Assembly (NCBI RefSeq): GCF_947504215.1
Contig: NZ_CANNGO010000009.1
Location: 64,264-128,263, forward strand
DNA length: 64,000 nucleotides
Direction of reading: 5' to 3'
DNA from: an uncultured Ruegeria sp.
GTDB taxonomy: Bacteria; Pseudomonadota; Alphaproteobacteria; Rhodobacterales; Rhodobacteraceae
Position 1 is the first letter of the stretch, and every line of letters begins with the position of its first letter. Below are positions 11,368 through 37,066 of this stretch, piece after piece. Made by a program: the position numbers and the translations under genes. The notes under the pieces were generated by a model. That model was not told the origin of the DNA. It saw nothing but the letters and a program-made list of their open reading frames with translations, and did not search any database.

Positions 11368-12180
11368 TCAGCTTGAGGCTGATTTAGGCAGATCGGTTTC
11401 GAAACTGTTTCCTTCGGTGTCTGTGGCCTTTACCGTGAACATCGTTGTTCCGTTGTCGTTGTAGGCAAAGCGAAACGCCGGGTTTTCAGAAATCGAAATC
11501 CCACCATCCATTGTGAACAGCAGCTCTTCACCCTGCCAGACTTCGATGTGGTCGATGAAATGCGCTGGAATAAACAACTGTGTCACCTGATCACGTTGCA
11601 AGCCCGAGTAGTTCGGGTGGCGGATCATGATCTGGGCCTCACGACGGGGCGTCGAGATTTGCGCTGCTTCGCCGAAACTGCGCAACTTCATCTTTCCCAT
11701 CGACGCCAGCGCAACTTCGGGGTCTTTGCTGGCCGGGGCTGAACATCCGCCCGACGCTTTGACAAACCGGCCGGTCATATGCAGACCATCCGGCGTTTCT
11801 GCGATGACGCGAATGTTGGAATACTGGTTTACGCGGACCCGCATTTCAAAATCCAACTCGCCCATGGCTGGCGAAAATGAAAACACGCCAGCAACGGGGG
11901 CCGGGTTCTCGTCGATCACAACCGTTGCCGCAGTGATCTGCGCATCGGGATCAAGTTGTTTCAGAACAATTGGCACGGTGGCTGCATCATGGGCCCGGTA
12001 GGGGGCGTCCAGCGTCAAAAGCGCGTCGGCTTCGCCAATTTGCGCGTCTCCTACGACGTCATATTGCAGGTCCTGCCAGGTCTCGCTTTCTGTGAGAGGG
12101 TTCTTGACCGACTGCTCCGCCCAAACGGGCAGGGACAGTGTCAATGAAAGCACCACAGCGGGTGCAAAAAGTCTGGCCAT
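11368..12180 (-). CDS. Quinoprotein dehydrogenase-associated fused SoxYZ-like carrier (copy 1)
   Basis: SoxY-like half DENPAP..RVNQYS..VKASGGCSAP, SoxZ-like half HPNYSGLQRDQ. Signal peptide; GGAGG RBS before the ATG at 12180. Confidence 0.88.
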   Translation of the reverse strand: MARLFAPAVVLSLTLSLPVWAEQSVKNPLTESETWQDLQYDVVGDAQIGEADALLTLDAPYRAHDAATVPIVLKQLDPDAQITAATVVIDENPAPVAGVFSFSPAMGELDFEMRVRVNQYSNIRVIAETPDGLHMTGRFVKASGGCSAPASKDPEVALASMGKMKLRSFGEAAQISTPRREAQIMIRHPNYSGLQRDQVTQLFIPAHFIDHIEVWQGEELLFTMDGGISISENPAFRFAYNDNGTTMFTVKATDTEGNSFETDLPKSASS

Positions 12181-12302
12181 GTTGTTTCCTCCGGCAACCG
12201 GTTCGGGGAATATGCCACAAAACCCCAATAAAATATACGCCGACCAAAGGCTGTGTGGTGTTCACGATTGAGTGTGCCAAGGTCCAAAGCGGAGGATGAG
12301 CC

Positions 12303-13337
12303 ATGTTTGAAGCCGTGATTGCGGTGTGCCTTGAGGTCACCGCCGGGCCCTGTCGAGAGCAACTTTTGCCGGGTTATGAGGCTGAAACGCAGTCAATATG
12401 CGAACAAGGCCTTGCGGCTGATCCGCCTTTGTTAAACCTGGATCAGACTAAGGGCAGTGCGCGGTGCCAACCCGTTGGCAAAGCTTTGGTTTTTTCTGAG
12501 GTTGCTCCGGGCGTTTACGTGCATCGTGGGCGCATCGAAGAGCCGAACACAGCCAATCTTGGGGATGTTTCAAATATAGGGTTTGTGATTGGCGACGACA
12601 GCGTCGCGGTGATTGACACAGGCACCGCCCCCTGGATGGGCGAGGGGATCTGGCGCGCCATCCGGGAAAGAACGGAAAAACCAGTCAGCCATGTGATCTT
12701 GACGCATATGCACCCCGATCATGTGCTGGGCACAGCACCTTTGGCGCAAGCAGGCGCATTGGTTGTGGCCCATCCCGGGCTGGAGCGCGCATTACTGGAT
12801 CGGCGTCTCAACTATGTTGAAAGCCTGAGCAGTTTGATAGGCGCCAGTGAATTGATCGGAGTGGGATCAATCACGGTCGACCAATCGGTGGACGCAGAAG
12901 ACGAGATTGATCTGGGGAATCGAATTTTGACGCTCCGCACTTGGCCCACAGCGCATACCGGAACCGATCTGACCGTATTGGATCAAGGTTCCGGCATTTT
13001 GTTCACTGGCGATCTGGTTTTTCATGAACACACCCCGGCACTGGATGGGCGGTTAATCGGTTGGAAAGAGGTTCTGACCGAAATGACCGAGATGCGGGTG
13101 AAGCAGATTGTTCCCGGACATGGCGGCCCGGTTTTGGACTGGCCAGACGGGGCAACGGATATGTTGCGTTACCTCAACGTGCTCGAAACAGATACCCGCG
13201 CTGCCCTTGATCAGGGTCAACGGCTGGGCGACGCGGTGGAAACGATTGCCGAAAGCGAGGCGGAACACTGGGATCTTTTTGACACTTATAACCCACGCAA
13301 CGCGACCGTTGCGTTTACCGAACTTGAGTGGGAATAG
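12303..13337 (+). CDS. Quinoprotein relay system zinc metallohydrolase (MBL fold, SoxH-like)
   Basis: THMHPDH metal motif, AHTGTD, GDLVF, VPGHG. Extra N-terminal segment with 4 Cys. Confidence 0.88.
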   Translation: MFEAVIAVCLEVTAGPCREQLLPGYEAETQSICEQGLAADPPLLNLDQTKGSARCQPVGKALVFSEVAPGVYVHRGRIEEPNTANLGDVSNIGFVIGDDSVAVIDTGTAPWMGEGIWRAIRERTEKPVSHVILTHMHPDHVLGTAPLAQAGALVVAHPGLERALLDRRLNYVESLSSLIGASELIGVGSITVDQSVDAEDEIDLGNRILTLRTWPTAHTGTDLTVLDQGSGILFTGDLVFHEHTPALDGRLIGWKEVLTEMTEMRVKQIVPGHGGPVLDWPDGATDMLRYLNVLETDTRAALDQGQRLGDAVETIAESEAEHWDLFDTYNPRNATVAFTELEWE

Positions 13338-13347
13338 CACTCCGCTC

Positions 13348-14136
13348 TCACTGCAAAGCGCGATCCAGATTCTTAGCGGCATCCAGATTGGTTTGGTCCA
13401 AGCCTTGCGCATCAACTAGCCGGGTGGCTGTCAGGTCCGCATCTGTGAAATCGGCCCCTGTCAGAATTGCGCCGGATAGGTCAGCGCCGCCCAGTGTGGT
13501 CATCGACATGTCGGCGTCGGTAAAATTCGCTCCGGGCAGTTTGGCAAATTCCAGATCGGCCCGAGACATAAGGGCGCCGGTGAAATCAACATTACTGCCA
13601 CGCGCCGATGTCAGGACGCCGCGCATCAGGCCCATTGATTGATTTCGCATATCAGCCGAGAAATCAGCTCCACGAAAAATCGCACCTGTCAGGTTGGCTT
13701 TGGTAAAGTCGGCGGCAGTTCTGGCATTGGTGAAATCCGTGTTGCTCAGATCTGCCCGGCCAAGCTGTGTCTGAAACAGTTCCGCCCCGACAAGTGAGGC
13801 ACCCGTCAGGTTTGCGCCGATCATCCACGCCTGGCTAAGGACCGCGCCATCAAAGTTCGACCCAGACAGGTTTGTACCGTTCATCGACGTTGCGCGCAGA
13901 ACTGCATTGCCGAAATCCAACTCGGAAAGATCCAGATTGTTCAGCCAAACGCGGGTGAAATCAGCGGGGCTATCCAGTGTTGCTGCGTCCAGCTGTGAGA
14001 TTACGTCGGCGCGGGTCAATTGCGCTTGCGTCATTTTGGGCAGGGTCATGTCAACGCCGCTCAGCACGCTTTGGCCAAGGGTTGGTAAGGGCAAGAGCGC
14101 GAATAAGGCCGCCTGAAGAACGATCAAGGATTTCAT
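13348..14136 (-). CDS. Exported pentapeptide-repeat protein
   Basis: Signal peptide followed by long A-(D/N)-(L/F)-x-x repeats. Confidence 0.9.
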   Translation of the reverse strand: MKSLIVLQAALFALLPLPTLGQSVLSGVDMTLPKMTQAQLTRADVISQLDAATLDSPADFTRVWLNNLDLSELDFGNAVLRATSMNGTNLSGSNFDGAVLSQAWMIGANLTGASLVGAELFQTQLGRADLSNTDFTNARTAADFTKANLTGAIFRGADFSADMRNQSMGLMRGVLTSARGSNVDFTGALMSRADLEFAKLPGANFTDADMSMTTLGGADLSGAILTGADFTDADLTATRLVDAQGLDQTNLDAAKNLDRALQ

Positions 14137-14167
14137 CTATGTTCTCCTTCTTGTGGCCGACTATGTT

Positions 14168-14782
14168 CTACCCCTGATCCGCCGCAAGTTGTTGCAACAT
14201 CTGGGAAATGGAAAACAGACGGCGTTCGATGATCTGGGGGGTTTCGCACAAATAGGTTATTGATCGCTGGCGGTCCGTGTAGATCAGCTGATCCCAATCC
14301 AGTTGTTCCTCAAGCGCGTCGACCGTGTCGTAGTCGGGCGGTTCAGCGGTTAGTGCCTGATCCATTTCGGCGCGAGCCAGGTCAATCTGGCTGGCCAGAT
14401 CAATCTGCTTCAGCGAGAACTCTCCTATTCCGCCGATGATCCGTTTACGTCGGTCCGAAAGGGTGTCGAAAACCTGTTGAAACACCAGCCCAAGAACATC
14501 AGGGTTACCCTTATGGCGTGCCGCAAACGCAGCCACCTGCGGCTGTAACTCGTCCAGTTCAATGCGGCGCAGGGCCAGTAGACCAGCGATTTCGTCAATC
14601 TCGGGCCGAAGCTCAGGTGTATCAGTGCCGTTGACTGGGTGCGGCCACATCAGCCCCATCGACAAATCCTCGACCTTGCGTTGCACGCAAGGCCAGGTTG
14701 GGTCGGAAAAATCCGCAGCAAAGCCGGGATTTGCCACGCTGAACCAAGCCAACGCCATCACGATATGCTTGCAGATCGACAT
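14168..14782 (-). CDS. Exported hypothetical protein (DPTWPCVQRKV motif)
   Basis: GGAGG RBS before the ATG at 14782, signal peptide, two Cys, helical body. Confidence 0.75.
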   Translation of the reverse strand: MSICKHIVMALAWFSVANPGFAADFSDPTWPCVQRKVEDLSMGLMWPHPVNGTDTPELRPEIDEIAGLLALRRIELDELQPQVAAFAARHKGNPDVLGLVFQQVFDTLSDRRKRIIGGIGEFSLKQIDLASQIDLARAEMDQALTAEPPDYDTVDALEEQLDWDQLIYTDRQRSITYLCETPQIIERRLFSISQMLQQLAADQG

Positions 14783-14945
14783 CGCGGGTCTCCTCCACAC
14801 TGACACTATGCCCGAAACCTGCGCGTTTAGTCCATTCAACCCAATACACACCATTGTCTTAATTGTTTGAACGGCGTGCCAGCCGCCATACTCGGCTTAA
14901 ACACCCGGATTCTATTTGTGTTCGGGAATGGGAGGACAGATTAAC

Positions 14946-16058
<1,113 letters not shown>

Positions 16059-16059
16059 T

Positions 16060-16890
16060 ATGGATCTGAAGGTCATCACACAAAATCGCAGTTTCGGGGG
16101 GGAACAGACCGTCTATTCCCACCAGTCGGAGACCTGCGATTGTGAGATGACCTTTGCAATTTATCTGCCCCCGCAGGCCAAGCAAGGGCCTGTTCCGCTG
16201 TTGTGGTATTTGTCTGGTCTGACCTGCACCCACGAAAACGCAATGACCAAAGGTGGTTTCCAAGAGGCAGCTGCAGATTATGGCGTTGCGGTGATCTTCC
16301 CGGACACGTCCCCGCGCGGAAGCACCGTGGCAGATGATGACGCCTATGACCTTGGGCAAGGGGCCGGGTTTTATGTCAATGCGACGCGCGAACCCTGGAA
16401 GTCGCATTTCCGCATGTATGATTACATTGTCGAGGAACTGCGTGAGATTGTTCTGAAGACCTTTCCTGTACAGGATCAGCAAGGCATTACTGGTCATTCC
16501 ATGGGCGGGCACGGTGCGTTGACGATCGCCATGCGCAACGCGGATTTGTTCGGATCGCTTTCGGCCTTTGCTCCAATCGCGCATCCGACGCAATCTGATT
16601 GGGGCCGAAAGCAACTCAGCAGTTATCTCGGGGATGATGAAAGCACCTGGTCCGAGCACGACTCGACCTTGCTGCTGGAAGAGCACGGTTGGAAGGGTGA
16701 CTTGTTAATCGACCAGGGTGCGGACGACCAATTCCTGGATCTGCTTAAACCCGAAGCGTTGGCCAATATGATGGCCAAGCGCCGCCAGCCCGGACAGATC
16801 AGAATTCAACAGGGCTATGACCATTCGTACTTCTTCGTGAACAGTTTTGCGCGGGACCATGTCGCATGGCACGCCGAGCGTCTCAGCTAA
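16060..16890 (+). CDS. fghA: S-formylglutathione hydrolase
   Basis: LSGLTCT, GHSMGG nucleophile elbow, GYDHSY. Confidence 0.96.
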   Translation: MDLKVITQNRSFGGEQTVYSHQSETCDCEMTFAIYLPPQAKQGPVPLLWYLSGLTCTHENAMTKGGFQEAAADYGVAVIFPDTSPRGSTVADDDAYDLGQGAGFYVNATREPWKSHFRMYDYIVEELREIVLKTFPVQDQQGITGHSMGGHGALTIAMRNADLFGSLSAFAPIAHPTQSDWGRKQLSSYLGDDESTWSEHDSTLLLEEHGWKGDLLIDQGADDQFLDLLKPEALANMMAKRRQPGQIRIQQGYDHSYFFVNSFARDHVAWHAERLS

Positions 16891-16915
16891 TGAAAACAGC
16901 AAGGAAAGATCGAGA

Positions 16916-17305
16916 GTGTTAAGAACAGTAATATCAGCAGCATGTCTGATGCTTGCACCGGTAATTGCAAGCGCCGAAGGAGATGTCGAGGCAGGCAAAA
17001 AGGTGTTTCGCAAGTGCAAAGCTTGCCACGCCGTTGGTGAGGGTGCCGAAAACAAGGTTGGGCCTATGCTGAACGGGATTGTGGGCCGTCAGGCGGCCAC
17101 CGTCGAAGGCTTTGGGTACTCTCCGGTATTGATGACGCTGTCCGAGGAAGGGCTTGTCTGGACGCCGGAAGAACTGGACGTGTTTCTGACCAAGCCGCGC
17201 GACTATGCCAAAGGCATCAAGATGACCTTTGCTGGTCTGCGCAAGGAAGACGACCGGGTCAACATAATCGCATATCTTGCGACCTTTGAAGACGAAGGCT
17301 CGTGA
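16916..17305 (+). CDS. Class I cytochrome c (c2/c550-like)
   Basis: Signal peptide, CKACH heme motif, GIKMTFAG axial Met. GTG start inferred. Confidence 0.92.
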   Translation: MLRTVISAACLMLAPVIASAEGDVEAGKKVFRKCKACHAVGEGAENKVGPMLNGIVGRQAATVEGFGYSPVLMTLSEEGLVWTPEELDVFLTKPRDYAKGIKMTFAGLRKEDDRVNIIAYLATFEDEGS

Positions 17306-17314
17306 GACACTGAG

Positions 17315-17361
17315 TTGCTCGCCCGTCGTTTAGCCCAAGGAGGGGCTTGACGGACGAGCAA
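17315..17361 (+). other. Long intergenic stem-loop between the cytochrome c gene and xoxF
   Basis: TTGCTCGCCCGTC (17315-17327) pairs with GACGGACGAGCAA (17349-17361), with an inner AGCCC/GGGCT stem. No U-tract. Confidence 0.6.
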
Positions 17362-17436
17362 GTAAAGACACCGCAATCCGGCAAGGGTGAGGTGTGTCAT
17401 AGCGGCGAAGACGCCGCACCAAAGGGAGGAAAATGA

Positions 17437-19239
17437 ATGAAAAAGCTATCGCTTTTGACCTCCGGGATCGCCATCTGTCTGGCCTCTGCGGCTTTTGCAA
17501 ATGACGACCTGGTTTCCCAGATGGAGAACTCAAAACAATGGGCGATCCAGACCGGTGACTACAAGAACCAACGCTATTCCGCACTGGACCAGATTACATC
17601 CGATAACGTCGGGGATCTGCAGGTTGCGTGGACATTCTCGACCGGTGTTCTGCGCGGGCACGAAGGTTCTCCGCTGGTGATCGGTGACATGATGTATGTC
17701 CATACACCGTTCCCGAACATCGTCTATGCGTTGGATCTGGCCAATGACGGCAAGATCGTTTGGAAGTATGAACCAAAGCAGGACCCGGACGTTATCCCGG
17801 TGATGTGCTGTGACACCGTGAACCGCGGTGTGGCGTATGCAGATGGTAAGATTTTCCTGCATCAGGCTGACACCAAGCTTGTTGCTCTGGATGCCAATAC
17901 CGGCGACGTCGTTTGGGAAGTGCAAAATGGTGACCCGGCAATTGGGGAAACCAACACTGCAACCGTGCTGCCTATTAAAGATAAGGTCATCGTCGGTATC
18001 TCTGGTGGTGAGTTCGGTGTGCGTGGGTCGGTTACAGCCTACGACATGAGCTCGGGCGAGCAGGTCTGGCGTGCCTATTCCATGGGTCCGGATTCAGACA
18101 TCCTGGTTGATCCGGAAAACACCACCCATCTAGGTACCCCAGTGGGTACGGATTCCGGAACCAACACATGGGAAGGCGACCAGTGGAAGATCGGTGGCGG
18201 CACCACCTGGGGCTGGTATTCAGCCGATCTGGAAGAAAACCTGATGTACTATGGTACCGGGAACCCATCGACATGGAACCCGGCGCAGCGGCCCGGCGAC
18301 AATCGCTGGTCGATGACTGTCATGGCGCGCGATATCGACACCGGTATGGCCAAGTGGTTCTATCAAATGACGCCGCATGATGAATGGGACTATGACGGCA
18401 TCAATGAAATGATCCTGACGGAACAGGAAATTGATGGCGAGCAACGCAAGTTGCTGACCCATTTTGACCGGAATGGTCTTGGGTACACCATGGACCGTGT
18501 CACGGGTGAACTGCTTGTGGCCGAGAAATTCGATCCGGTGGTCAACTGGACCACGGGTGTCGATATGGACCCCAACAGCGAAACCTATGGTCGTCCGGCG
18601 GTGGTCGCTCAGTACTCGACGGAACAGAACGGCGAGGACGTAAACTCGACCGGTATCTGCCCGGCGGCTTTGGGTACCAAAGACCAACAGCCTGCTGCCT
18701 ATTCGCCTAAGACCGAGCTTATGTACGTGCCGACAAACCACGTCTGCATGGACTATGAGCCGTTCCGCGTGTCTTACACCGCTGGTCAGCCCTATGTGGG
18801 TGCGACGCTGGCAATGTATCCGGCACCGGATAGCCATGGCGGTATGGGGAACTTCATAGCCTGGGATAACACCGACGGTTCCATCAAGTGGTCGATCCCC
18901 GAGCAGTTCTCGGTTTGGTCGGGTGCTCTGGCGACTGCAGGTGATGTTGTGTTCTACGGCACGCTCGAAGGGTATCTGAAGGCTGTTCATGCCGAGACTG
19001 GTGAAGAACTCTACAAGTTCAAGACACCATCGGGTATCATCGGCAACGTGATGACCTATGAACATGGCGGTAAGCAGTACATTGGCATCCTGTCAGGTGT
19101 TGGTGGCTGGGCCGGCATTGGTCTTGCGGCTGGTCTGACCAATCCGAATGACGGTCTGGGCGCCGTGGGTGGCTATGCCGCTCTTAGCGACTACACCGCG
19201 CTTGGTGGTCAGCTAACTGTGTTCGCACTGCCGAACTAA
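17437..19239 (+). CDS. xoxF: Lanthanide-dependent PQQ methanol dehydrogenase (XoxF, probably clade 5)
   Basis: Vicinal disulfide MCCD, ligand Glu in GGEFG, active-site WDYDG with the extra Asp diagnostic of Ln binding (MxaF has D-x-A). No mxaI follows. Confidence 0.97.
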
Positions 19240-19249
19240 GCCAAATAGT

Positions 19250-19281
19250 GTCTGGCGCGGCCCGCGATGGTTGCGCCAGAC
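19250..19281 (+). terminator. Intercistronic hairpin after xoxF (partial terminator or mRNA stabiliser)
   Basis: GTCTGGCGC (19250-19258) / GCGCCAGAC (19273-19281) followed by TTT. Confidence 0.55.
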
Positions 19282-19307
19282 TTTCAGCTACAGCAAACGA
19301 GAATTTC

Positions 19308-19811
19308 ATGATCCTAGCAGTACGTCTTTTGGCCCCTTTTGCGATTATCTGTCTTCCTCTGGCCGCAGCGGCTGACAATCTAGCCGTCGAGTACACCGAG
19401 GACGGTCGATCTTTCACGGATGACGATGTCCCTACGTTCAATGTCGCAGAAGATGGAACGGTGGACTGGCCGACGTTTTCAGGATTTCGTCGCTATCATG
19501 CGGAATGCCATGTGTGTCATGGTCCAGACGGAGAAGGTTCGACCTACGCGCCTGCGCTGAAGCAATCCGCGCTGGATATGGATTATTACGACTTCGTTGA
19601 TGTCGTCACCAATGGTCGGCAGGTGATCAACGCGGCCGAAAACTCGGTGATGCCCGGATTTGGCGACAACCCGAATGTGATGTGCTTTCTGGACGACATT
19701 TATGTTTATCTGAAAGCCCATGGTTCCGGTACGATCCCACGCGGTCGGCCCCCGAAGAAAGAAGCAAAATCGGATGTGATCCGCGAGGATGAAGATGCGT
19801 GCATGGGCTAA
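19308..19811 (+). CDS. xoxG: Cytochrome c electron acceptor of XoxF (c553i-like)
   Basis: CHVCH, YAPAL, VMPGFG. Directly downstream of xoxF. Confidence 0.9.
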   Translation: MILAVRLLAPFAIICLPLAAAADNLAVEYTEDGRSFTDDDVPTFNVAEDGTVDWPTFSGFRRYHAECHVCHGPDGEGSTYAPALKQSALDMDYYDFVDVVTNGRQVINAAENSVMPGFGDNPNVMCFLDDIYVYLKAHGSGTIPRGRPPKKEAKSDVIREDEDACMG

Positions 19812-20637
19812 TGCCTTTCTGACAGTGTTGGGGCTCACGGTTTGGATCAGCCAGGCGCAGCCCGCTATCGCGCAAACATCCGATCTGGTTTCAAAAAACG
19901 CGTTTCGCGTCTGCGCAGACCCGGCAAATTTCCCCGTCTCCTCCAAAGATGGGTCAGGATATGAAAACAAACTGGCCGAGCTGATCGCAGCAAAACTGGA
20001 GCTTCCGGTACAATACACATGGTTTCCTCAGGCCACCGGCTTCATTCGGAACACCTTGGCTGCCAAGCGCTGTGATGTTGTGATCGGATACGCGCAAGGG
20101 CACGAGTTGGTACAAAACACCAATCATTATTACACGTCCGCCTATTCGTTGATCGTCCCTAAAAACGGTGAACTTGCAGAGGTCGACACTCTGAATGATC
20201 CCGCGCTCAAGGGGCGGCGGATCGGGATCATTGCGGGTACACCCCCGGCTGCCCACATGGCGCGCAATGGTTTGATCGGACAGGCCAAACCTTATAATTT
20301 GTTTGTAGATCGTCGTGTCGAAAGCCCTGCAATTGACATGTTGAATGACTTGCAATCCGGTGAAATCGAAGCTGCTGTTCTATGGGGTCCTTTGGGCGGA
20401 CCGCTAGTCAAAAGCGACTATCCGGACTTCAAAGTGGTCCCCTTGGTTAAGGAAGAGCTGCCGCCGCGCCTGTTCTATCGTATTACCATGGGTGTGCGTC
20501 AGGGTGAGAAAGTGTGGCAGCGGCAGCTGAATTCCCTGATCCGTCGCAATCAGGACGAAATCAACGGGGTGCTGGCCGAGGCGGGTGTTCCGCTGGTCAA
20601 CGATCTGGGAACCGAGGTTTTGGAGCTGTCACAATGA
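19789..20637 (+). CDS. xoxJ: Periplasmic binding-fold XoxJ/MxaJ-like protein
   Basis: FRVCADPANFP, GYENKLAEL, RCDVVIG motifs. Synteny with xoxFG. Confidence 0.92.
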   Translation: MKMRAWANAFLTVLGLTVWISQAQPAIAQTSDLVSKNAFRVCADPANFPVSSKDGSGYENKLAELIAAKLELPVQYTWFPQATGFIRNTLAAKRCDVVIGYAQGHELVQNTNHYYTSAYSLIVPKNGELAEVDTLNDPALKGRRIGIIAGTPPAAHMARNGLIGQAKPYNLFVDRRVESPAIDMLNDLQSGEIEAAVLWGPLGGPLVKSDYPDFKVVPLVKEELPPRLFYRITMGVRQGEKVWQRQLNSLIRRNQDEINGVLAEAGVPLVNDLGTEVLELSQ

Positions 20638-21188
20638 TCCGCGCCCTTGCGGCGTTTGTTCTAATGGCCACCGCTGCGACCGCGCAAACCGTCCCGGAAC
20701 CCTCAGATTATCGAATGGATCACTATCGGGCGCCGGTGCCCGACCAGATAACCGGCGGTGCAGCCATCGGCCCGGAAGAGGCGCATGCTTTGTGGCAGGA
20801 GCAAAGCGCGGTCTTTATCGACGTCCTGCCGCAAGCCCCGAAACCGGCCAACCTGCCCAAAGGCACGATCTGGCGGGACAAGCCTCGTAACAGTATTCCG
20901 GGTGCAATCTGGTTGCCGAACGTAGGCTATGGGGCCATTGCCGATGTCACCGCTGACTATTTCCGCAAGGGTTTGGAAGAGGTGACCGACGGTGACACCA
21001 GCCGAGCAGTTGTCTTCTTCTGCCTGGAGGATTGCTGGATGAGCTGGAACGCTGCCCGGCGCGCCATCGAATGGGGCTATGGCAGCGTCTATTGGCTGCC
21101 CGAAGGCACCGATGGTTGGGCTTTGTGGGGCTACCCTCTCGAACGGGTGAAACCGGAACCGGGTCAGCCAGTGGCCGAAGGCGGGTAG
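20634..21188 (+). CDS. Exported rhodanese-like protein, PQQ-catabolism-associated CXXCW type
   Basis: IPGAIWLPNVG and FFCLEDCWMSWNAA. ATGA overlap with xoxJ. Confidence 0.88.
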   Translation: MIRALAAFVLMATAATAQTVPEPSDYRMDHYRAPVPDQITGGAAIGPEEAHALWQEQSAVFIDVLPQAPKPANLPKGTIWRDKPRNSIPGAIWLPNVGYGAIADVTADYFRKGLEEVTDGDTSRAVVFFCLEDCWMSWNAARRAIEWGYGSVYWLPEGTDGWALWGYPLERVKPEPGQPVAEGG

Positions 21189-21189
21189 T

Positions 21190-22008
21190 CTAGAACCCCG
21201 CCAGATCCTTATGCAGGTGACTGACCGTGCCGTCTGTATCTGTCATGGTAACATCCACCGACTGCGCTTTGCTTGGCACCGAAATGCCGACACGCGGGTT
21301 CTCGGATAGGGAAATCGATCCGGTCATCTCGATATAGCCGGCACCATCAAGGTCGATATCTACGGTTTCCACGTAGCGCATTGGAATGAACAGCAGGGAA
21401 ATCTGGTCCATTTGCATTCCGGAATGCGAGGGGTGGTCGATGTTCAGATCCATCTTGTTGGCTCGGTTCGCACCAAGGTTCGAAAGCCGGGTACGTGTAT
21501 CGAGCGCGGGGACACGGCCGACCAGTTCAGCCTCCATCGTACCCAAGTTCGCTATGGCCAGTTCCGGATCGGTTCCCGGAGGTGCAGAACACGCACCCAA
21601 ACCGGATGTTTTGACAAAGGTTTCCGAAACCCAAAGTCGCCCGTCTGTGGTTTCCGCAATGACATGCATGGGTGTTGGGCCGTTTACTCGCATCGTCACG
21701 TCAAAGTAGAAACTGGGCAGCGGCTTTTCCAACTCGAACACGGCAGAGACCGGCATCGGGTTTTCATCCAAGACCAGAGTTACTTTGGCGACATTTACCC
21801 CCTTGGGGGCTACAATCTGCGCGGCCAATTCAGCACGGGCATCATCCGGCGTGCGATAGGGGGCATCAATGGCGATCAGATCATCGCCGTTCAGCATGGC
21901 CCGGTCGCCGTATAGCAACGCCCGCACATTCTCCCATGCTTCGTTCGACGCCCAGGCCGGCAGAGCCAATAGGCAAAGCAGGGACGCGATCAGGCAAGAA
22001 GTTCTCAT
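21190..22008 (-). CDS. Quinoprotein dehydrogenase-associated fused SoxYZ-like carrier (copy 2)
   Basis: DENPMP..RVNG..FVKTSGLGACSAP, then HPSHSGMQMDQ. Signal peptide. Confidence 0.87.
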   Translation of the reverse strand: MRTSCLIASLLCLLALPAWASNEAWENVRALLYGDRAMLNGDDLIAIDAPYRTPDDARAELAAQIVAPKGVNVAKVTLVLDENPMPVSAVFELEKPLPSFYFDVTMRVNGPTPMHVIAETTDGRLWVSETFVKTSGLGACSAPPGTDPELAIANLGTMEAELVGRVPALDTRTRLSNLGANRANKMDLNIDHPSHSGMQMDQISLLFIPMRYVETVDIDLDGAGYIEMTGSISLSENPRVGISVPSKAQSVDVTMTDTDGTVSHLHKDLAGF

Positions 22009-22970
22009 TGTCTTCCTCCTTCCAAAAATCTGCCGAAAGCGCGGGGCCCATCGCAGGTTTCCAATGTTCTTACCACGGACATAGTATCCGGGTCCACGAA
22101 ACTGACGGTGTTGTCGAACCAGTTGGCGATGACCAACAGGTCACCTTTAGCTGTGACATCGATGCCTTCGGGATACTCTCCGACATCAATCGTTGCCTCG
22201 GGTTCGAGCGTGTCCAGTGAGATCGCGGTGAGCGTGTTGGAATACTGGTTGGTCACAAAAGCGTGGTTGTTGGCGAAGGCAATGCCATAGGGTCGTTCCC
22301 CAACTGGAACGGTAGCAAGTCTTTTACCGCTTTCGGCATCCAGGACACTGACGTCATTGCTGCCCACATTGCCCACAAACAGCCGTCCATCCGGAGCAAA
22401 GCCCAACCCAAAGGGACGGGTTCCTACGGGAATACGGTGCAGCGGCTGTAGGGTTCCAGCATCGAAAACCGATACCTGATCGGCATCTTTGTCAGCCGAG
22501 GCCACAAAGCGCCCATCGCCCGAAAGGGCTATGCCAGCCGGAGCCTCTCCCGTAGTTATTTCCGTTTGTGTTTCCAAAGTCTTGTCATCCAAGACCCACA
22601 GCCGGGCGTTGTACCAATCCGACACGAACAGTCGTCCCTGCCGAGGGTCCTGCGCGATGCCGATCGGGCCGCCGTCCAGCACGATCTGCGACAATATCTC
22701 GCCGGTTTTTGTGGAAAGGCGTTGGATCGTCTTGCTGCCGGCCGACACCGTGAACAGGTCGCCGTGTGCACCGACCGCAACACCAGCTGGTTTGCCGGGC
22801 AGGGGCCAGCGGTCGGTTTCGTGCATCTCGGTCACGTCGATGCGGCTTAGTTCCTCACCGTTCTGGCAAGTCACAAAGGCAGTGTCTGCAGGCGCAGCGC
22901 TAGCGGTCGCAGCTAGAAACAATGCCAAACCGAGCTCAGCTTGCGGCGCCAAAGCGTTCGACCAAAGCAT
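22005..22970 (-). CDS. YVTN/YncE beta-propeller protein
   Basis: Repeats of V.vG.rP.GIA..DG..FVTN. Signal peptide. Confidence 0.88.
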   Translation of the reverse strand: MLWSNALAPQAELGLALFLAATASAAPADTAFVTCQNGEELSRIDVTEMHETDRWPLPGKPAGVAVGAHGDLFTVSAGSKTIQRLSTKTGEILSQIVLDGGPIGIAQDPRQGRLFVSDWYNARLWVLDDKTLETQTEITTGEAPAGIALSGDGRFVASADKDADQVSVFDAGTLQPLHRIPVGTRPFGLGFAPDGRLFVGNVGSNDVSVLDAESGKRLATVPVGERPYGIAFANNHAFVTNQYSNTLTAISLDTLEPEATIDVGEYPEGIDVTAKGDLLVIANWFDNTVSFVDPDTMSVVRTLETCDGPRAFGRFLEGGRQ

Positions 22971-23475
22971 CCAGACCGGCCTGATAGACGCCCGTCACGG
23001 CAGCCACAGCTGCTTCGTCATTCAGTTCGGCGGGTGGATCGTTATTGGGGTATCCACGATAAAACGCGCCGCGCCATTCGATGATCGATCCGCCTCCGTC
23101 ACGGGGCTTTACGGTCAGATGTGACGAGTAGTTGGTTACCGGCAGAACTTCGACCTCGACCGCCGTTATCCGGTAGGAATAGCTCATCTTCTCGGCGCTG
23201 TGTTTATACAGAACCTCTGCAATCGTGGGTCCGCCGTCTTGCCCAAGCGTCAGTAACCGTGTCGCGTCAATCTCGTTCTCACCTTCGCCTTCCGTAGAAA
23301 ACACCGCAGGGTGCCAGGACATGTCGTCAAAATTTCCGATGGCTGCCCAGACGTCTTCTGGGGGGGCTGCGACTTCGGCCGTCAGGGTAACTTTTTGGCG
23401 GGTCGGGCCATGTGCCCAGACAGCGCCAGGCGCCGAAGCCGCCGCGATAGTTGCAACAAAGGTTCGTCGATTCAT
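22936..23475 (-). CDS. SRPBCC-family MxaD-like protein with Tat signal
   Basis: NRRTFV twin-arginine motif, WAAIGNF, WRGAFYRGYPNNDPP. Confidence 0.82.
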   Translation of the reverse strand: MNRRTFVATIAAASAPGAVWAHGPTRQKVTLTAEVAAPPEDVWAAIGNFDDMSWHPAVFSTEGEGENEIDATRLLTLGQDGGPTIAEVLYKHSAEKMSYSYRITAVEVEVLPVTNYSSHLTVKPRDGGGSIIEWRGAFYRGYPNNDPPAELNDEAAVAAVTGVYQAGLDALVERFGAAS

Positions 23476-24980: not shown

Positions 24981-25952
24981 ATGAAACACATATTGTTATC
25001 CACCGCTCTTGCCGCATTGATTGCGGGTCCGGTTTTCGCCGGGAAGGCCTTTGTCTCGAATGAACGAGGCAACACAATCACCGTCGTCGATACCGATACG
25101 TGGGAGGTCATTACCGAGTTTCCGGGCGGGAACAGACCCCGCGGCATCACGGTCAGCCCGGATGGAAGCAAGCTGTATGTCTGTGCCTCGGATGACAATA
25201 TCATTCGAGTGTTCGATACCGAGACATACGAAGAGCTACCGAGCCTGCCATCAGGGCCTGACCCTGAGCTGTTCATTCTCGAGCCGTCGGGAAAACGACT
25301 GTACATCGCCAATGAGGACGACAACCTTGTGACGGTCACGGACACGGAAACGCGTACCGTTCTGGCCGAGGTGCCGGTTGGTGTCGAACCCGAAGGCATG
25401 GGGATGAGCCCGGATGCGAAATTCGTGGTGAACACGTCTGAGACCACCAATATGGCGCATTTCATCTCGACCGAGGATTATACAATCAAACACAATATTC
25501 TGGTCGATCAGCGCCCGCGCTACGCGCAATACTCGGCAGATGGGTCGCGTTTGTTTGTAACGTCAGAGATTGGCGGAACGGTGTCCGTCATGGACATCGC
25601 TGAAGACGGGACACCCACGGTTGTCGGCAAGATCAGCTTTGAAGTGGCAGGTGTTCAGCCCGAATGGTTGCAGCCTGTCGGTGCCAAAGTCACGTCAGAT
25701 GGCAAGCGTCTATTTGTTGCGTTGGGTCCGGCAAATCGCGTAGCCGTTGTCGACGCGCAAAGCCTTGAGGTTCTGGACTACATCCTTGTGGGGCAGCGCG
25801 TCTGGCAGTTGGATTTCACGCCCGACGAGAAGTACCTGCTGACAACGAACGGCAATTCCAACGACATAACCATAATCGATGTCGCGACAGAAAAAGCGAT
25901 CAAATCCGTACAGGTCGGCCAACAGCCTTGGGGCGTTGTGACGATTGACTGA
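24981..25952 (+). CDS. PQQ-catabolism-associated YVTN beta-propeller (PedA2/LutB-like)
   Basis: FVSNERGNT, GPDPELF, GVEPEGM, GQRVWQ repeats. Confidence 0.88.
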   Translation: MKHILLSTALAALIAGPVFAGKAFVSNERGNTITVVDTDTWEVITEFPGGNRPRGITVSPDGSKLYVCASDDNIIRVFDTETYEELPSLPSGPDPELFILEPSGKRLYIANEDDNLVTVTDTETRTVLAEVPVGVEPEGMGMSPDAKFVVNTSETTNMAHFISTEDYTIKHNILVDQRPRYAQYSADGSRLFVTSEIGGTVSVMDIAEDGTPTVVGKISFEVAGVQPEWLQPVGAKVTSDGKRLFVALGPANRVAVVDAQSLEVLDYILVGQRVWQLDFTPDEKYLLTTNGNSNDITIIDVATEKAIKSVQVGQQPWGVVTID

Positions 25953-25971
25953 TGTTCTGGGAGGAACGGGA

Positions 25972-26409
25972 ATGAAGAAGCTATTGACCGCAGCCCTGGT
26001 TGCGACACTGGGCGGGCCGGTATCGGCGGCGCCACTTTGCGATGATCTGGGGTTTGCAGGGCTCCTGGCAAAGTGCAATCGCGGGGAAACCATCCAGCTG
26101 ACGCTCGCCTCGGGGCAACCGTTGGGTGAGGATGTCGTGCTGCAATCCGGTGCGTATTACAAGCTGGAGATCACCGCAGACGGATCGGCTGAGCTGGCCA
26201 TCGAAGGCCCTTCGTTCTTTCGGGCAATCTGGATGAATGAGATTGTCATCAACAAGATCGAAATTCGCCCGATGGCCGTGGACAGTATCGAGTTTGATAA
26301 GGCCGGCGTTGCCGAGCTGTCGTTCATAGCGATCAAACCTGGCAGTCACGAAATTCGTATCCCCGGGTCCACTGGCGAAACTCAGAAAGTGACCATCAGT
26401 ATTCAATGA
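25972..26409 (+). CDS. Exported cupredoxin-like protein lacking type-1 Cu ligands
   Basis: Signal peptide and beta-sandwich pattern ending FIAIKPGSHEIRIPG. No C-x-x-x-H-M ligand loop. Confidence 0.55.
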   Translation: MKKLLTAALVATLGGPVSAAPLCDDLGFAGLLAKCNRGETIQLTLASGQPLGEDVVLQSGAYYKLEITADGSAELAIEGPSFFRAIWMNEIVINKIEIRPMAVDSIEFDKAGVAELSFIAIKPGSHEIRIPGSTGETQKVTISIQ

Positions 26410-26423
26410 TGAAAGGACAAAGT

Positions 26424-26672
26424 ATGAAAAAGATTGGTGTATTGGCCCTTCTGGCTTGTGTTGCCTCGCCGGCGCTGGCGGATGAGGTAGACGTGGAAAC
26501 TGTCGGCAAGATCGAGGCATATCTGGCGTCTGTCGAGTGCCAGATGGACCCCGATGATATTGAGGTGGAAGACGACGGTTATGACCTTGATGACGTGATC
26601 TGCAAAGGCGGCAATCAGTTCGATATCAAGTTGGACAAAGACCTCAATGAGGTCAGCCGCAAGGCCGAATAG
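26424..26672 (+). CDS. Small acidic exported PepSY-like protein
   Basis: Signal MKKIGVLALLACVASPALA; mature 63 aa with 21 D/E; IEVEDDGYDLDD..QFDIKLD matches the PepSY pattern. Confidence 0.75.
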   Translation: MKKIGVLALLACVASPALADEVDVETVGKIEAYLASVECQMDPDDIEVEDDGYDLDDVICKGGNQFDIKLDKDLNEVSRKAE

Positions 26673-32048: not shown

Positions 32049-32073
32049 TTGAAAGTTGGCGCGCGGGCCGTGA

Positions 32074-32175
32074 TCAGATCAGGCCGCCGCCGCGCTCATC
32101 ATCATGATCGGGGCCATACATGTTGATTTCCATGCCGCATTCAATCTCGCGGATCACCGGTTTGTTCCATGCCAT
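32074..32175 (-). CDS. pqqA: PQQ precursor peptide, 33 aa: MAWNKPVIREIECGMEINMYGPDHDDERGGGLI
   Basis: Translated by hand. W-x-K-P leader, E-x-x-x-Y (E16/Y20) core, GGAGGAGG RBS, directly upstream of pqqB. Absent from the ORF track because of its size. Confidence 0.93.
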   Translation of the reverse strand: MAWNKPVIREIECGMEINMYGPDHDDERGGGLI

Positions 32176-32239
32176 ATCGGGGTCCTCCTCCAAAAGTGTC
32201 CTTGGCTTCAATTTGGCAGGTATCCGGCACCAGAGCGAA

Positions 32240-32274
32240 TCTTAATTTATAAGAGCGTCTTAGACTTTGGTCGG
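32240..32274. promoter_or_regulatory. Two candidate operators upstream of pqqA
   Basis: TCTTA-ATTTA-TAAGA (32240-32254) and TAGAC-TTTG-GTCGG (32261-32274). Both motifs recur at other promoters of the cluster. Confidence 0.45.
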
Positions 32275-32277
32275 TAG

Positions 32278-32961: not shown

Positions 32962-32970
32962 ACGTTCACT

Positions 32971-36103: not shown

Positions 36104-36282
36104 CTATTCCTCCGCCCGGATTCCCGTACTGACGGTCAGCTTGCCCGTTCGGCGCGCGTTTCTCAACCATGCAGAAAATCGCCCGACTGCGACTTAAGTC
36201 TACGTAACCTCGCAGATTTGTTATGCGGAGAACACGATAAAGCGGGGCTATGGTCCTCATGTCTAGGATGGAGAGATCCGCC

Positions 36283-36720
36283 ATGAGCATCGGCCGACGT
36301 GGCGCCATGCAAGTCAGCCTGGGTGCGTTGTTGTGTCTGGCAACACCGCTGCGGGCGCAGGATATTTTGGCACCACCAAACTCTGCGACGTTGGAGGATG
36401 TGATTGCGGCTTTCTCTGATGGAAGCTCGATCCGTGATGGAAGCGTAACTGTGACGTTGCCTGAAATCGCTGAAGATGGATATCGCGTTTCGGTGCAGGT
36501 CGCCGCGCCAGAGGCCACGGAAATTCTACTTGTGGCGCCGGGCAACCCGGTGATGCCGGTGCTCAGGGCCAAATTTGGCCCAATGGCGGGTGCTGCAAGA
36601 GTGTCTACTCGTATGCGGTTGGCCCAAACTCAGGACGTTCTGGTATTGGCGCGAATGCCGGATGGAAGCATTCAAAAAGGTCTTAAACCTGTGTCGGTTA
36701 TCGTAGGCGGATGCGCCTAA
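36283..36720 (+). CDS. soxY: SoxY-like carrier protein
   Basis: RR-type leader, PEIAEDG, STRMRLAQTQ, C-terminal arm VIVGGCA. Confidence 0.82.
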   Translation: MSIGRRGAMQVSLGALLCLATPLRAQDILAPPNSATLEDVIAAFSDGSSIRDGSVTVTLPEIAEDGYRVSVQVAAPEATEILLVAPGNPVMPVLRAKFGPMAGAARVSTRMRLAQTQDVLVLARMPDGSIQKGLKPVSVIVGGCA

Positions 36721-36736
36721 TCCAAAGGAGGGGAAG

Positions 36737-37066
36737 ATGGCGACAGGTGTCAAAACCCGGATCAAACTGCCCAGAGAGGTCAGGGCAGGTGATATGATCA
36801 CGATCAAAACCCTGATCACACATCGCATGGAATCCGGGCAGCGGATCGATCCTGTTGGCATGCCGATACCGCGCTCGATCATCCACCGATTTCTTTGTAC
36901 ATTTGACGGCGAAACTGTTGTCGATCTTGAGATCGGACCCGGAGTTTCGACGAACCCGTTTTTCGAGTTTGAGGCAACCATCCCAGGCTCTGGGGTGTTC
37001 ACCTTTGCATGGTTCGACGATGACGGCGCGATTTACACTGACAGCAAGGCGGTCGTGGTTGCCTAG
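36737..37066 (+). CDS. soxZ: SoxZ-like protein
   Basis: IKTLITHRMESGQR, STNPFFEF, WFDDDG. No signal peptide. Confidence 0.85.
   Translation: MATGVKTRIKLPREVRAGDMITIKTLITHRMESGQRIDPVGMPIPRSIIHRFLCTFDGETVVDLEIGPGVSTNPFFEFEATIPGSGVFTFAWFDDDGAIYTDSKAVVVA

Follow-up and report, generated by a model that had tools for sequence, protein, structure and literature searches.

The DNA analyzed here, a 64,000-nucleotide window from an uncultured Ruegeria sp., belongs to a marine Roseobacter and carries a set of genes around a gene for a lanthanide-dependent methanol dehydrogenase. A cytochrome c550-like gene, xoxF, xoxG and xoxJ lie on the plus strand at 16847..20637, with xoxF of the lanthanide type at 17437-19239 (TIGR03075, 770 against a cut-off of 480), xoxG at 19248-19811 and xoxJ at 19789-20637; TIGR03871 scores 293.9 in this block (cut-off 212). 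The genome encodes no other PQQ alcohol dehydrogenase than XoxF, which has vicinal Cys residues at 124-125 and the sequence DEWDYDG (DYD, lanthanide type). The features named in a first-pass annotation were all found where it had placed them, and its recognition of a quinoprotein-associated SoxYZ-like, SoxH-like and rhodanese-like set was correct.

Two fused SoxYZ-like carriers are encoded on the minus strand, carrier 1 at 11368..12180 and carrier 2 at 21190..22008. Both had been annotated as such, and both exceed the NCBIfam cut-off of 140 bits for TIGR04557 (286.1 and 164.1, respectively); carrier 1 also matches Pfam SoxY and SoxZ. The SoxY_true model gave 51.7 and 27.8 for the two proteins against a cut-off of 125. 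The carriers are 33% identical to each other. Carrier 1 has a Sec-type signal peptide and a single Cys on the flexible loop joining its SoxY and SoxZ halves, in the arm FVKASGGCSAP (type 'KA[SA]GGCSAP'); the arm of carrier 2 is VKTSGLGACSAP (type 'KTSGxGAC[SA]APPG'). In the AF2 model of carrier 1 the mean pLDDT is 86, the arm block 141-150 standing at 63 and the adjoining blocks at 96 and 80, and the best Foldseek matches are SoxY 2ox5_Y (TMt 0.83) and SoxZ 2oxh_A (TMt 0.82). Poor conservation of the arm Cys had been named in advance as an argument against a functional role, and that argument fails: only one of 125 diverse homologues lacks the residue (124/125). It is invariant across the curated alignments and kept in all 20 orthologues of carrier 2. 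Overall, both carriers adopt the SoxY-SoxZ fold and place a single, nearly invariant Cys on a flexible loop rich in Gly.

Carrier 2 is the last gene of an operon on the minus strand, in which it is co-transcribed with genes for a SRPBCC/Polyketide_cyc2 protein with a Tat signal (22936-23475) and a YVTN beta-propeller (22005-22970), both identified with Pfam/NCBIfam; it overlaps the propeller gene by ATGA. Among 80 loci, the propeller accompanies the carrier in 21 and the SRPBCC protein in 9.

Divergent from carrier 1, with a spacer of 122 bp, a gene at 12303-13337 (plus strand) encodes the HxHxDH metallohydrolase of the annotation, which scores 367.7 with TIGR04559, quinoprotein relay zinc metallohydrolase 2 (cut-off 280 bits). 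A stop codon, TGA, in frame two codons upstream sets its start, together with the Shine-Dalgarno sequence GGAGGA. The first 60 residues (12303-12482) fold into a beta-beta-alpha-beta N-domain with four Cys, and the remainder is a di-zinc MBL domain with HMHPDH, H218, D237 and H273; the Cys and metal ligands are invariant. In this lineage the protein has no signal peptide, the conserved four-Cys domain standing in its place, so the label 'periplasmic', given to the whole set in the annotation, is only presumptive for the hydrolase and its encounter with the exported carrier is only putative. The AF2 model (pLDDT 96) matched 8d2z, chlorothalonil dehalogenase 6uxu, B2 lactamases and alkylsulfatases in Foldseek. 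The di-zinc alkylsulfatase SdsA1 gave E=7e-15; the similarity to alkylsulfatases is at a TM of about 0.6, and the B2 lactamases and the dehalogenase match as well as or better than the alkylsulfatases. Neither glyoxalase II nor ETHE1 was present among the best 50 structural neighbours, and the GloB model, whose cut-off is 200.8, gave 31 bits.

The ATG of the gene at 20634-21188 (plus strand) overlaps the xoxJ stop as ATGA; the two genes are translationally coupled, and coupling had been noted at first pass. The product has a Sec signal peptide and the sequence FFCLEDCWMSW (motif FC-x3-CWMSWN), that is C-x3-C-W and not CXXCW as in the family name of TIGR03865. Its designation as a rhodanese was partly borne out: the TIGR03865 score is 237.2 (cut-off 128 bits), while Pfam Rhodanese gives 21.7, just under the cut-off of 22.2. 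Both Cys are present in 44 of 44 orthologues and lie in the rhodanese active-site loop, which is acidic, unlike that of sulfurtransferases; the protein also weakly matches TsoB, a rhodanese/DsbD-like selenoprotein.

Several other conserved genes adjoin the set. Two exported proteins encoded at 10230-10904 and 10901-11347 (plus strand), downstream of a PedS1-like hybrid kinase gene and convergent on carrier 1, gave no match in a Pfam and NCBIfam profile search; their homologues adjoin carrier 1 in 62 and 66 of 80 loci, and the second is Cys-rich, with a conserved pattern of 5 Cys in its mature part. An exported helical protein (14168..14782, minus strand; 63/80 loci), whose orthologues carry Sec-type signals, has the mature N-terminus ADFSDPTWPC, a second Cys in YLCETP and a weak Metal_resist match alone (E=0.0065). 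Next to it, at 13348..14136 on the minus strand, lies a gene for an exported pentapeptide-repeat protein (Pfam Pentapeptide, 1.1e-38) resembling PedD, its counterpart in the ped cluster (PMC12997753); it occupies this position in only 4 of 80 loci. The cytoplasmic route is represented by adhI and fghA (14916..16890, plus strand; Pfam ADH_N/ADH_zinc_N and Esterase), of the glutathione-dependent formaldehyde dehydrogenase and S-formylglutathione hydrolase types, which are syntenic in 39 and 37 of 80 loci. The island also holds homologues of PedA1A2BC (a PedABC/Lut-type transporter), a PepSY protein, MoxR/VWA genes, xoxJ/pedG, pqq genes and a set of NosP/PedS1/ErdR-like regulators.

In this genome the 'quinoprotein relay' set of NCBIfam/TIGRFAMs is represented by the fused carriers and the zinc hydrolase. 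It consists of the TIGR04557 carrier, zinc metallohydrolases 2 and 1 (TIGR04559/TIGR04558) and the PQQ-associated CXXCW protein TIGR03865, and it accompanies lanthanide-dependent PQQ alcohol dehydrogenases. Examples are PP_2677, PP_2678 and PP_2666 of P. putida KT2440 and META1p1703-1705 of M. extorquens, where the function is putative as it is in the window. All four window proteins score over the curated cut-offs, and the neighbourhood is alike: a Ln-type PQQ-ADH, xoxJ/pedG, PedA1A2BC, pqq genes and NosP/PedS1/ErdR-like regulators. The window genome differs in having a pair of carriers with different arm types alongside a single XoxF, a hydrolase sub-form with the four-Cys N-domain and without a signal peptide, and the C-x3-C-W motif. 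The XoxF-linked set is thus real but, already being named in NCBIfam, not new; what is added here is the conservation of the arm Cys, the co-occurrence of carrier and hydrolase, the optional nature of the CX3CW protein, the kept formaldehyde routes, the four-Cys N-domain found in place of a signal peptide in this lineage's hydrolase, and the origin of the third SoxYZ pair.

Compared with canonical Sox proteins (Paracoccus pantotrophus, PDB 2ox5/2oxg; T. thermophilus SoxB-SoxYZ, 4uwq), the carriers share the SoxY and SoxZ folds (TMt 0.82-0.85, about 30% identity), the Gly-Gly-Cys carrier motif, a SoxH-related MBL-fold partner and the logic of a carrier with a resetting hydrolase. Canonical SoxY has its Cys at a free GGCGG C-terminus, whereas the Y and Z halves of the window carriers are fused and the Cys therefore lies in an internal GGCSAP loop; SoxAX, SoxB or SoxCD do not accompany them. 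A published tree of SoxY-SoxZ fusions distinguishes two divergent types, one with PQQ-ADH and soxH and one with xoxF, and its authors deem a role outside sulfur oxidation likely; the window has two carrier types in one island with a single xoxF.

Carrier and relay-type hydrolase occur together in 19 of 19 carrier-positive alphaproteobacterial genomes, and the relay-type MBL is found in all 18 such genomes other than this one. PQQ-ADH is present in 18 of the 19 and in 46 of 232 genomes without the carrier (Fisher p=4e-11, without phylogeny correction), and the carrier lies at most 5 kb from it in 14 of 19. In these genomes the carriers never occur without a di-zinc MBL hydrolase of the relay type and rarely without PQQ-ADH. 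Where the sequence was read, the carrier-linked PQQ-ADH is of the lanthanide (D-x-D) type: vicinal CC is found in all 43 XoxF proteins adjoining carrier 1, and D-x-D in 42, the remaining one fitting no search pattern. Of the 19 carrier-positive genomes, 8 encode the rhodanese-like CX3CW protein and 11 lack it, making it an optional addition to the set. Streamlined genomes (1.4-2.3 Mb) retain the set beside xoxF, and a cytoplasmic formaldehyde route (AdhI or Fae) is kept in 17 of 18 carrier-positive genomes, all streamlined ones included.

In the parent SoxY, SoxZ and SoxH system the chemistry is that of Cys-S-SO3- or persulfide, and SoxS keeps the SoxY Cys reduced. By analogy, we tentatively favor a carrier-hydrolase cycle, like that of SoxYZ with SoxB, that may remove sulfur adducts threatening the lanthanide-PQQ center. 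A covalent adduct would form on the carrier Cys, to be cleaved with water by the hydrolase, which would thereby reset the thiol. The lack of a SoxAX-like loading enzyme in the set counts against this reading, as the Cys would have to be loaded by XoxF itself or by spontaneous chemistry. The identity of the adduct is a guess; because of the homology to SoxY, SoxZ and SoxH, a sulfonate or sulfane derived from sulfite, sulfide or thiosulfate would be the likeliest, species that, left alone, might attack the Ln-bound PQQ, which is highly electrophilic, or the strained vicinal Cys-Cys bridge in XoxF. The pair would then be a device for protection and repair of XoxF and not a catabolic route, and the CX3CW dithiol protein, where present, could maintain the carrier Cys as a thiol under the oxidising conditions of the periplasm, a task that SoxS performs for SoxY.

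The curated family scores, the SoxY/SoxZ folds, the low-confidence arm loop, the conserved arm Cys, the constant company of the relay-type hydrolase, the link to lanthanide-type PQQ-ADH and the retention of the set in streamlined genomes support sulfur-adduct removal as our best guess. The structural neighbours of the hydrolase, which include alkylsulfatases but, among the best 50, no glyoxalase II or ETHE1, may count for it as well, the similarity to alkylsulfatases being modest. A SoxH is reported, in work cited in PMC11237559, to take the place of SoxB when sulfate is released from SoxY. In H. denitrificans, thiosulfate inhibits growth that depends on methanol but not growth that depends on formate, and shielding of PQQ from S-nucleophiles has already been proposed (PMC12997753). 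The YeeE-like genes pmpAB of this organism adjoin its SoxH and its Sox(YZ) fusion, which likewise speaks for the proposal (PMC11582611). Against it stand the missing thiosulfate response of these pmpAB genes (PMC11582611) and the minimal RB-TnSeq phenotypes of the P. putida genes, obtained in conditions without rare earths (PMC12997753). Further points against it are the buried XoxF active site facing a carrier Cys on an internal loop instead of a free C-terminal arm, the many carrier hosts without sulfur oxidation, and the pairing of a hydrolase lacking a signal peptide with an exported carrier.

The first-pass annotation had offered a protein-bound C1 route as one of two ideas. In its general form, aldehyde from the Ln-ADH would form a hemithioacetal with the carrier Cys, XoxF would turn this into a thioester by oxidation, and hydrolysis by the zinc enzyme would free the acid, so that in the C1 case formaldehyde would become formate in the periplasm. 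Such chemistry would need nothing beyond the dehydrogenase, the carrier and the hydrolase, the very trio that is conserved, and it resembles that of AdhI/FghA and glyoxalase II, in which a thiol carrier likewise leads through hemithioacetal and thioester to a hydrolase; adhI-fghA lie in the same cluster (39/80 loci), and the MBL fold includes thioesterases, glyoxalase II being one. The window carrier is, however, a protein and the hydrolase no relative of GloB or esterase D, as the GloB score and the absence of glyoxalase II from the best 50 neighbours indicate. The cytoplasmic pathways are kept alongside the carrier set, and with AdhI or Fae in 17 of 18 genomes a protein-bound route would be redundant. 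P. putida has the same set in its ped cluster, which is not a C1 cluster (PMC12997753), and steric access of an internal-loop Cys to the buried active site is doubtful. The idea is thus weakened, and we consider it unlikely.

We regard as similarly improbable a thiol-disulfide maintenance system, in which carriers and CX3CW protein would form, re-form or reduce the vicinal disulfide as XoxF matures or once it has been damaged, with no hydrolysable adduct. The vicinal pair is present, the two invariant Cys, acidic non-sulfurtransferase loop and weak TsoB match of the CX3CW protein would suit such a role, and the M. extorquens operon includes a thioredoxin-like gene. Yet the ever-present hydrolase would be left without a role, and no electron source (DsbD/CcdA) was found within the window. 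Ca-dependent enzymes share the disulfide but lack the set (PMC12997753). The same source, a 2026 review of ped in AEM, already contains both this proposal and the persulfide/redox relay that was the annotation's other idea; the form of the latter running through the rhodanese is weakened, as is disulfide maintenance, by the lack of the CX3CW protein in 11 of 19 genomes. That the carriers handle lanthanide or PQQ, delivering it to apo-XoxF or inserting it in concert with their neighbours (the PedABC/Lut-type transporter, the PepSY protein and the MoxR/VWA genes), with the Cys structural or sensing, seems very unlikely. The strict tie to lanthanide-type enzymes, the presence of these partner genes in the island and the conserved exported proteins would fit, but thiolates are poor ligands of hard Ln3+ ions, the carrier alignments contain no conserved acidic metal-binding motif, and a near-invariant single loop Cys whose hydrolase partner is obligatory argues for covalent chemistry.

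The count of three carriers around xoxF given at first pass was too high. The third pair, SoxY' and SoxZ' (36283-36720 and 36737-37066, plus strand), scores 94.7 with SoxY_true, under the cut-off of 125, and 85.6 with SoxZ_true, over the cut-off of 76; SoxY' has a Tat signal and ends in VIVGGCA. The orthologue group has about 14 members; each is Ruegeria-like and terminates in GGCA. In three sister genomes the pair is followed by cytochrome c and FCSD (flavocytochrome sulfide dehydrogenase) genes, which were not found after it in this genome. SoxY'Z' is a Ruegeria-restricted paralogue of canonical SoxYZ and a separate leftover of a soxY'Z'-cytochrome c-FCSD sulfide-oxidation operon, outside the quinoprotein set. 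The annotation had noted no soxXAB or soxCD in the window. A SoxB search of its contig gave no match, and a complete canonical locus, soxXYZABC(D), lies on another contig (C5), whose SoxY and SoxZ are 48% and 55% identical to SoxY' and SoxZ'.

When the ORFs between positions 37 and 39921 were scanned against Pfam and NCBIfam, they fell into a single large island of the xox/ped type. The island lies on contig C9 (the window being C9:64264-128263) of a genome of 4.5 Mb, and the nearest named relatives of its proteins are those of Ruegeria species, carrier 1 being 88% identical to the R. arenilitoris copy. On the plus strand (37-7926, 5′ of the hybrid kinase at 7923-10196) it opens with genes for a MoxR-type ATPase and a BatA-like VWA protein; further unassigned genes follow, and after them come an ErdR-like regulator and a NosP-like protein (344.7 bits, under the cut-off of 450). 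This region has its counterpart in the NosP/PedS1/PedR1 end of the ped cluster of Pseudomonas. After the kinase come genes for two exported proteins lacking a family assignment, u10230 (10230-10904, +) and u10901 (10901-11347, +; Cys-rich, with five Cys in the mature part), the fused SoxY-SoxZ carrier 1 (11368-12180, −), a zinc metallohydrolase (12303-13337, +), a PedD-like pentapeptide protein and a third exported protein of this kind, u14168 (14168-14782, −), which is helical and has the motifs DPTWPC and YLCETP. Then follow adhI, fghA, a c550-like cytochrome gene, xoxF, xoxG and xoxJ, in that order, the gene for the rhodanese-like CX3CW protein (20634-21188, +) and carrier 2 (21190-22008, −), whose operon also holds a YVTN propeller gene and has as its first gene a Tat-signal SRPBCC (Polyketide_cyc2) protein (22936-23475, −). 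The superfamily of this last protein also includes MxaD from the Ca-dependent system. Next come PedA1/PedA2 homologues, an exported 154-aa protein, a PepSY protein and an NMT1-type ABC system; these are followed by pqqEDCB, a two-component pair, PedC/PedB homologues and a stand-alone soxY′Z′ pair (36283-37066, +). With the E-value limit raised to 10, Pfam searches returned nothing informative on u10230, u10901, u14168 or the N-terminal domain of the hydrolase. In some of five streamlined loci examined, homologues of each of the three exported proteins were seen beside xoxF. RNA runs gave even, DNA-like coverage from related strains only, plus a metatranscriptome matching the conserved adhI/xoxF of relatives.

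The carriers, the hydrolase and the rhodanese-like protein had all been reported by the first-pass annotation; each was recovered at the same position and scored over the curated cut-off of its family (TIGR04557, TIGR04559 and TIGR03865, respectively). On TIGR04557, the 'quinoprotein relay' family, carrier 1 scored 286.1 bits and carrier 2 164.1 bits against a cut-off of 140, and in both a SoxY domain is followed by a SoxZ domain on a single chain (Pfam). The best PDB matches of carrier 1 in Foldseek were SoxY (2ox5_Y, TMt 0.83) and SoxZ (2oxh_A, TMt 0.82); its AF2 model has a mean pLDDT of 86, falling to 63 in the arm block. The arms read SGGCSAP in carrier 1 and SGLGACSAP in carrier 2. Conservation of the arm Cys had been proposed earlier as a test of the carrier reading. 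It was found in 124 of 125 sequences (123 full-length representatives of 50%-identity clusters and the two window carriers), within [VI]KA[SA]GGCSAP, a Gly-rich loop that closes the SoxY half, and C146 is invariant in three carrier alignments (A1, A2 and A4). Carrier 2 represents a separate arm type, VKTSGxGAC[SA]APPG, in which all 20 orthologues keep the Cys. A second conserved block, HPNxxG, lies in the SoxZ half. In the window xoxF sits between the two carriers, and carrier 2 and the propeller gene overlap as ATGA.

The hydrolase scored 367.7 bits on TIGR04559 (cut-off 280). Its set of MBL metal ligands is complete: H135, H137, D139, H140, H218, D237 and H273 are shared without exception by 68 homologues, and the motif reads HMHPDH. 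The AF2 model has a pLDDT of 96, and the nearest structures in Foldseek were an uncharacterised B. cenocepacia MBL (8d2z), chlorothalonil dehalogenase, B2 lactamases and di-zinc alkylsulfatases; neither glyoxalase II nor persulfide dioxygenase was present among the top 50 matches. No signal peptide was detected on the window protein. Its start codon (ATG 12303) is preceded by GGAGGA 7 nt 5′, a start farther upstream is ruled out by an in-frame TGA two codons 5′, and the orthologues annotated by NCBI are of equal length. Residues 1-60 (12303-12482) were modelled confidently as a beta-beta-alpha-beta domain in which all four Cys (C9, C17, C33 and C55) are invariant; an HMM of this domain found no second copy in the genome. 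The catalytic domain of 283 residues is free of Cys in 65 of the 68 homologues, with about 2.9 Cys expected from the genome Cys frequency. Such a distribution is typical of proteins from oxidising compartments, and because the four N-domain Cys are invariant and the catalytic domain is nearly always Cys-free, the pattern suggests that the hydrolase may work in one. Orthologues from Methylocystis, Mesorhizobium, Kiloniellaceae and streamlined marine genomes (352-398 bits on TIGR04559) carry a Sec or a Tat signal and lack the N-domain, and the genes for these signal-bearing forms are co-directional with the carrier, not divergent from it. Export of the signal-less enzyme together with a Tat-signal neighbour was considered and rejected: u14168, u10901 and carrier 1 are all of Sec type.

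The gene for the CX3CW protein had been described as a CLEDCW rhodanese coupled to xoxJ. The coupling was upheld, the start codon overlapping the xoxJ stop as ATGA, and the protein scored 237.2 bits on TIGR03865 (cut-off 128); the rhodanese assignment was not. The PF00581 score of 21.7 bits is under the gathering cut-off of 22.2, and the loop C-L-E-D-C-W-M is acidic and has a second Cys, unlike the basic six-residue loop of rhodaneses (CRxGx[R/T]). All 44 orthologues contain FC-x3-CWMSWN (FFCLEDCW in the window), with a Cys spacing of three residues, not two. A sequence search of the PDB with this protein gave no match. By its signature XoxF is a lanthanide-type methanol dehydrogenase: it scored 770 bits on TIGR03075 (cut-off 480), carries DEWDYDG, with the extra Asp two residues past the catalytic one, and has vicinal C124-C125. 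According to tblastn it is the sole PQQ-ADH in the genome.

To compare gene order we gathered 80 loci with carrier-1 orthologues of the VKASGGCSAP type. The shared order starts with the kinase, u10230 and u10901, convergent on carrier 1; carrier 1 is divergent from the hydrolase, which is itself convergent with u14168. The 3′ block runs from adhI through fghA, cytochrome c, xoxF, xoxG and xoxJ to CX3CW and meets, convergently, the genes for carrier 2, the propeller and SRPBCC. The hydrolase was present in 70 of these loci, u10901 in 66, u14168 in 63, u10230 in 62, CX3CW in 44, XoxF (within 10 kb) in 43 and carrier 2 in 20, counts that are inflated by shared ancestry since the sample leans to Alphaproteobacteria and comes mostly from Rhodobacterales and Hyphomicrobiales. 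The three exported proteins may be part of the same system as the carriers. Every XoxF neighbouring carrier 1 (43/43) has the vicinal CC, and 42 have D-x-D; the remaining one matched no search pattern.

In a sample of 251 evenly drawn alphaproteobacterial genomes, a true fused carrier was present in 19. A TIGR03075 PQQ-ADH was found in 18 of these 19 and in 46 of the 232 carrier-less genomes (Fisher p=4e-11, with genomes treated as independent of phylogeny), and in 14 of the 19 the carrier lies within 5 kb of the ADH. The sole carrier-positive genome without such an enzyme (E<=1e-60), G085, has on an 18-kb contig (C30, locus L106) pqqBCDE, a relay hydrolase with a signal peptide, the carrier, two of the exported unassigned proteins and adhI. 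The same contig also encodes a 513-aa exported ORF with no Pfam match. Besides the window genome, all 18 other carrier genomes have an MBL of the relay type: 12 are over the TIGR04559 cut-off, and the six at 156-219 bits, five of them directly beside the carrier, are probably of the type-1 family. Streamlined genomes (1.4-2.3 Mb) keep the carrier, hydrolase, xoxFGJ, pqq and the exported unassigned proteins. For the high-GC loci L113-L117 the greedy ORF layout proved unreliable and was set aside. Because the CX3CW protein is present in only 7 of the 18 genomes and in none of the streamlined ones, the conserved core consists of dehydrogenase, carrier and hydrolase, and the rhodanese-like protein is accessory.

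The soxY′Z′ pair had been counted as a third carrier around xoxF, and this has to be withdrawn. SoxZ′ is over the TIGR04490 cut-off (85.6 against 76 bits), and SoxY′, which has a Tat-type signal, scored 94.7 bits against 125 on SoxY_true (TIGR04488). It was also rejected as a canonical SoxY on account of its end, VGGCA and not GGCGG, and the absence of soxXAB nearby. A complete canonical locus is present elsewhere in the same genome (contig C5:179669-196371), with soxXYZABCD, an ArsR-type regulator, thioredoxin-like and CcdA-like genes, a cytochrome and FCSD, and two YeeE-like genes; scores against cut-offs were 89/61 for SoxX, 142/125 for SoxY (142.2 bits, with the GGCGG end), 227/110 for SoxA, 824/550 for SoxB and 584/420 for SoxC. 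In its SoxH-like MBL the HxHxDH motif is degenerate (DENGQGH). SoxY′ and SoxZ′ share 48% and 55% identity, respectively, with the canonical pair. About 14 sequences, all Ruegeria-like, make up the GGCA orthologue group, and the pair occurs in 1 of the 18 same-genus genomes. In three Ruegeria genomes (the one among those 18 and two of further species) the next genes encode a small cytochrome c and the flavoprotein of a flavocytochrome c sulfide dehydrogenase (FCSD) (L104:6855-8490, L105:6915-8486 and L103:10655-12283). Both are missing from the window, where about 0.5 kb of non-coding DNA (37067-37568) is followed by a convergent MipA gene; the pair stands at the island edge, divergent from pedBC. 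Because the cytochrome c and FCSD genes follow in the sister loci and are missing here, the third pair reads as the remnant of a separate sulfide-oxidation operon that descended within one genus, and the operon in the window looks truncated.

One suggestion of the first-pass annotation was a protein-bound C1 route, with formaldehyde oxidised in the periplasm by carrier and hydrolase. We reasoned that streamlined genomes might then drop other routes. Streamlined carrier genomes of this kind, predicted by the idea, did not emerge: of 18 carrier genomes, 11 encode Fae, 7 encode an AdhI that scores over its cut-off, and 17 have at least one of the two. The set is no substitute for formaldehyde oxidation in the cytoplasm. 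The hydrolase was also rejected as a glyoxalase II (TIGR03413), scoring 31 bits on the GloB model against 200.8; this score and the structural neighbours lend the thioesterase idea no support, although such an activity would still be compatible with the model.

The other suggestion, a persulfide or redox relay, is already in print. A 2026 review of the ped cluster covers the P. putida trio PP_2666/2677/2678 and M. extorquens META1p1703-1705, links the trio to Ln-dependent ADHs, notes minimal RB-TnSeq phenotypes with rare earths absent, and lists disulfide formation, cofactor stabilisation and shielding of PQQ from sulfur nucleophiles as proposals (PMC12997753). [quoted passage not shown] The set in the window is an ordinary and correctly read copy of a named gene set, which was not discovered here. 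What the comparisons add is the narrowing of the core to carrier and hydrolase, the negative test of the C1 route, the reassignment of the third carrier to sulfide oxidation and the signal-less four-Cys form of the hydrolase.

Among marine and soil bacteria, Ln-dependent methanol and alcohol dehydrogenases are widely distributed, and how they mature and are kept up is poorly understood. The comparison established four points: the carrier has the SoxYZ fold and a single near-invariant Cys on a flexible loop; a di-zinc hydrolase is its obligatory partner; the set is tightly linked to Ln-type XoxF; and streamlined genomes retain it. As the pair is kept beside xoxF even in genomes of 1.4-2.3 Mb, it probably matters for XoxF function, and the identity of the Cys cargo would fill a real gap in XoxF upkeep. 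Because the hydrolase partner is obligatory, we propose that the carrier works in a cycle: an adduct bound covalently to its Cys would be removed with water by the hydrolase, as SoxB hydrolytically frees the adduct from SoxY. Tentatively, we rank first a sulfur species as the adduct, with the pair protecting or repairing the Ln-PQQ/vicinal-disulfide centre; this ranking draws on the prior from homology, on structural neighbours of alkylsulfatase type, and on two reports, that SoxH can substitute for SoxB (PMC11237559) and that thiosulfate inhibits methanol-dependent growth (PMC12997753).

Maintenance of thiols and disulfides alone appears unlikely: it would leave the hydrolase without a job and leans on an optional partner. 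An aldehyde cargo, whose chemistry is neat, would be redundant with the retained pathways and is doubtful too. Delivery of a metal or cofactor fits the neighbourhood, but a lone thiol does not suit such chemistry, and we regard it as very improbable. Nor would we put much weight on a joint reading in which XoxF itself loads the carrier and the four-Cys N-domain marks an unrecognised route or docking of the folded hydrolase. Here a nucleophile at Ln-PQQ (sulfite/sulfide or an aldehyde hydrate) would be joined oxidatively to the carrier Cys, electrons would pass to XoxG and the zinc hydrolase would then release the product; the N-domain, which in Rhodobacterales and Rhizobiaceae takes the position of the signal peptide, would be a way to bring or dock the folded enzyme. 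If true, XoxF, carrier and hydrolase would form a periplasmic carrier cycle that is independent of SoxAX and has so far gone unrecognised.

Immediately following the PedA1/PedA2 homologues, at 25945-26672 (+), are the genes for the exported 154-aa protein and the PepSY protein, the latter acidic and 88 aa long. The two are possible candidates for lanthanide handling. The 154-aa protein was also seen to recur beside PedA2 or u14168 in distant genomes.
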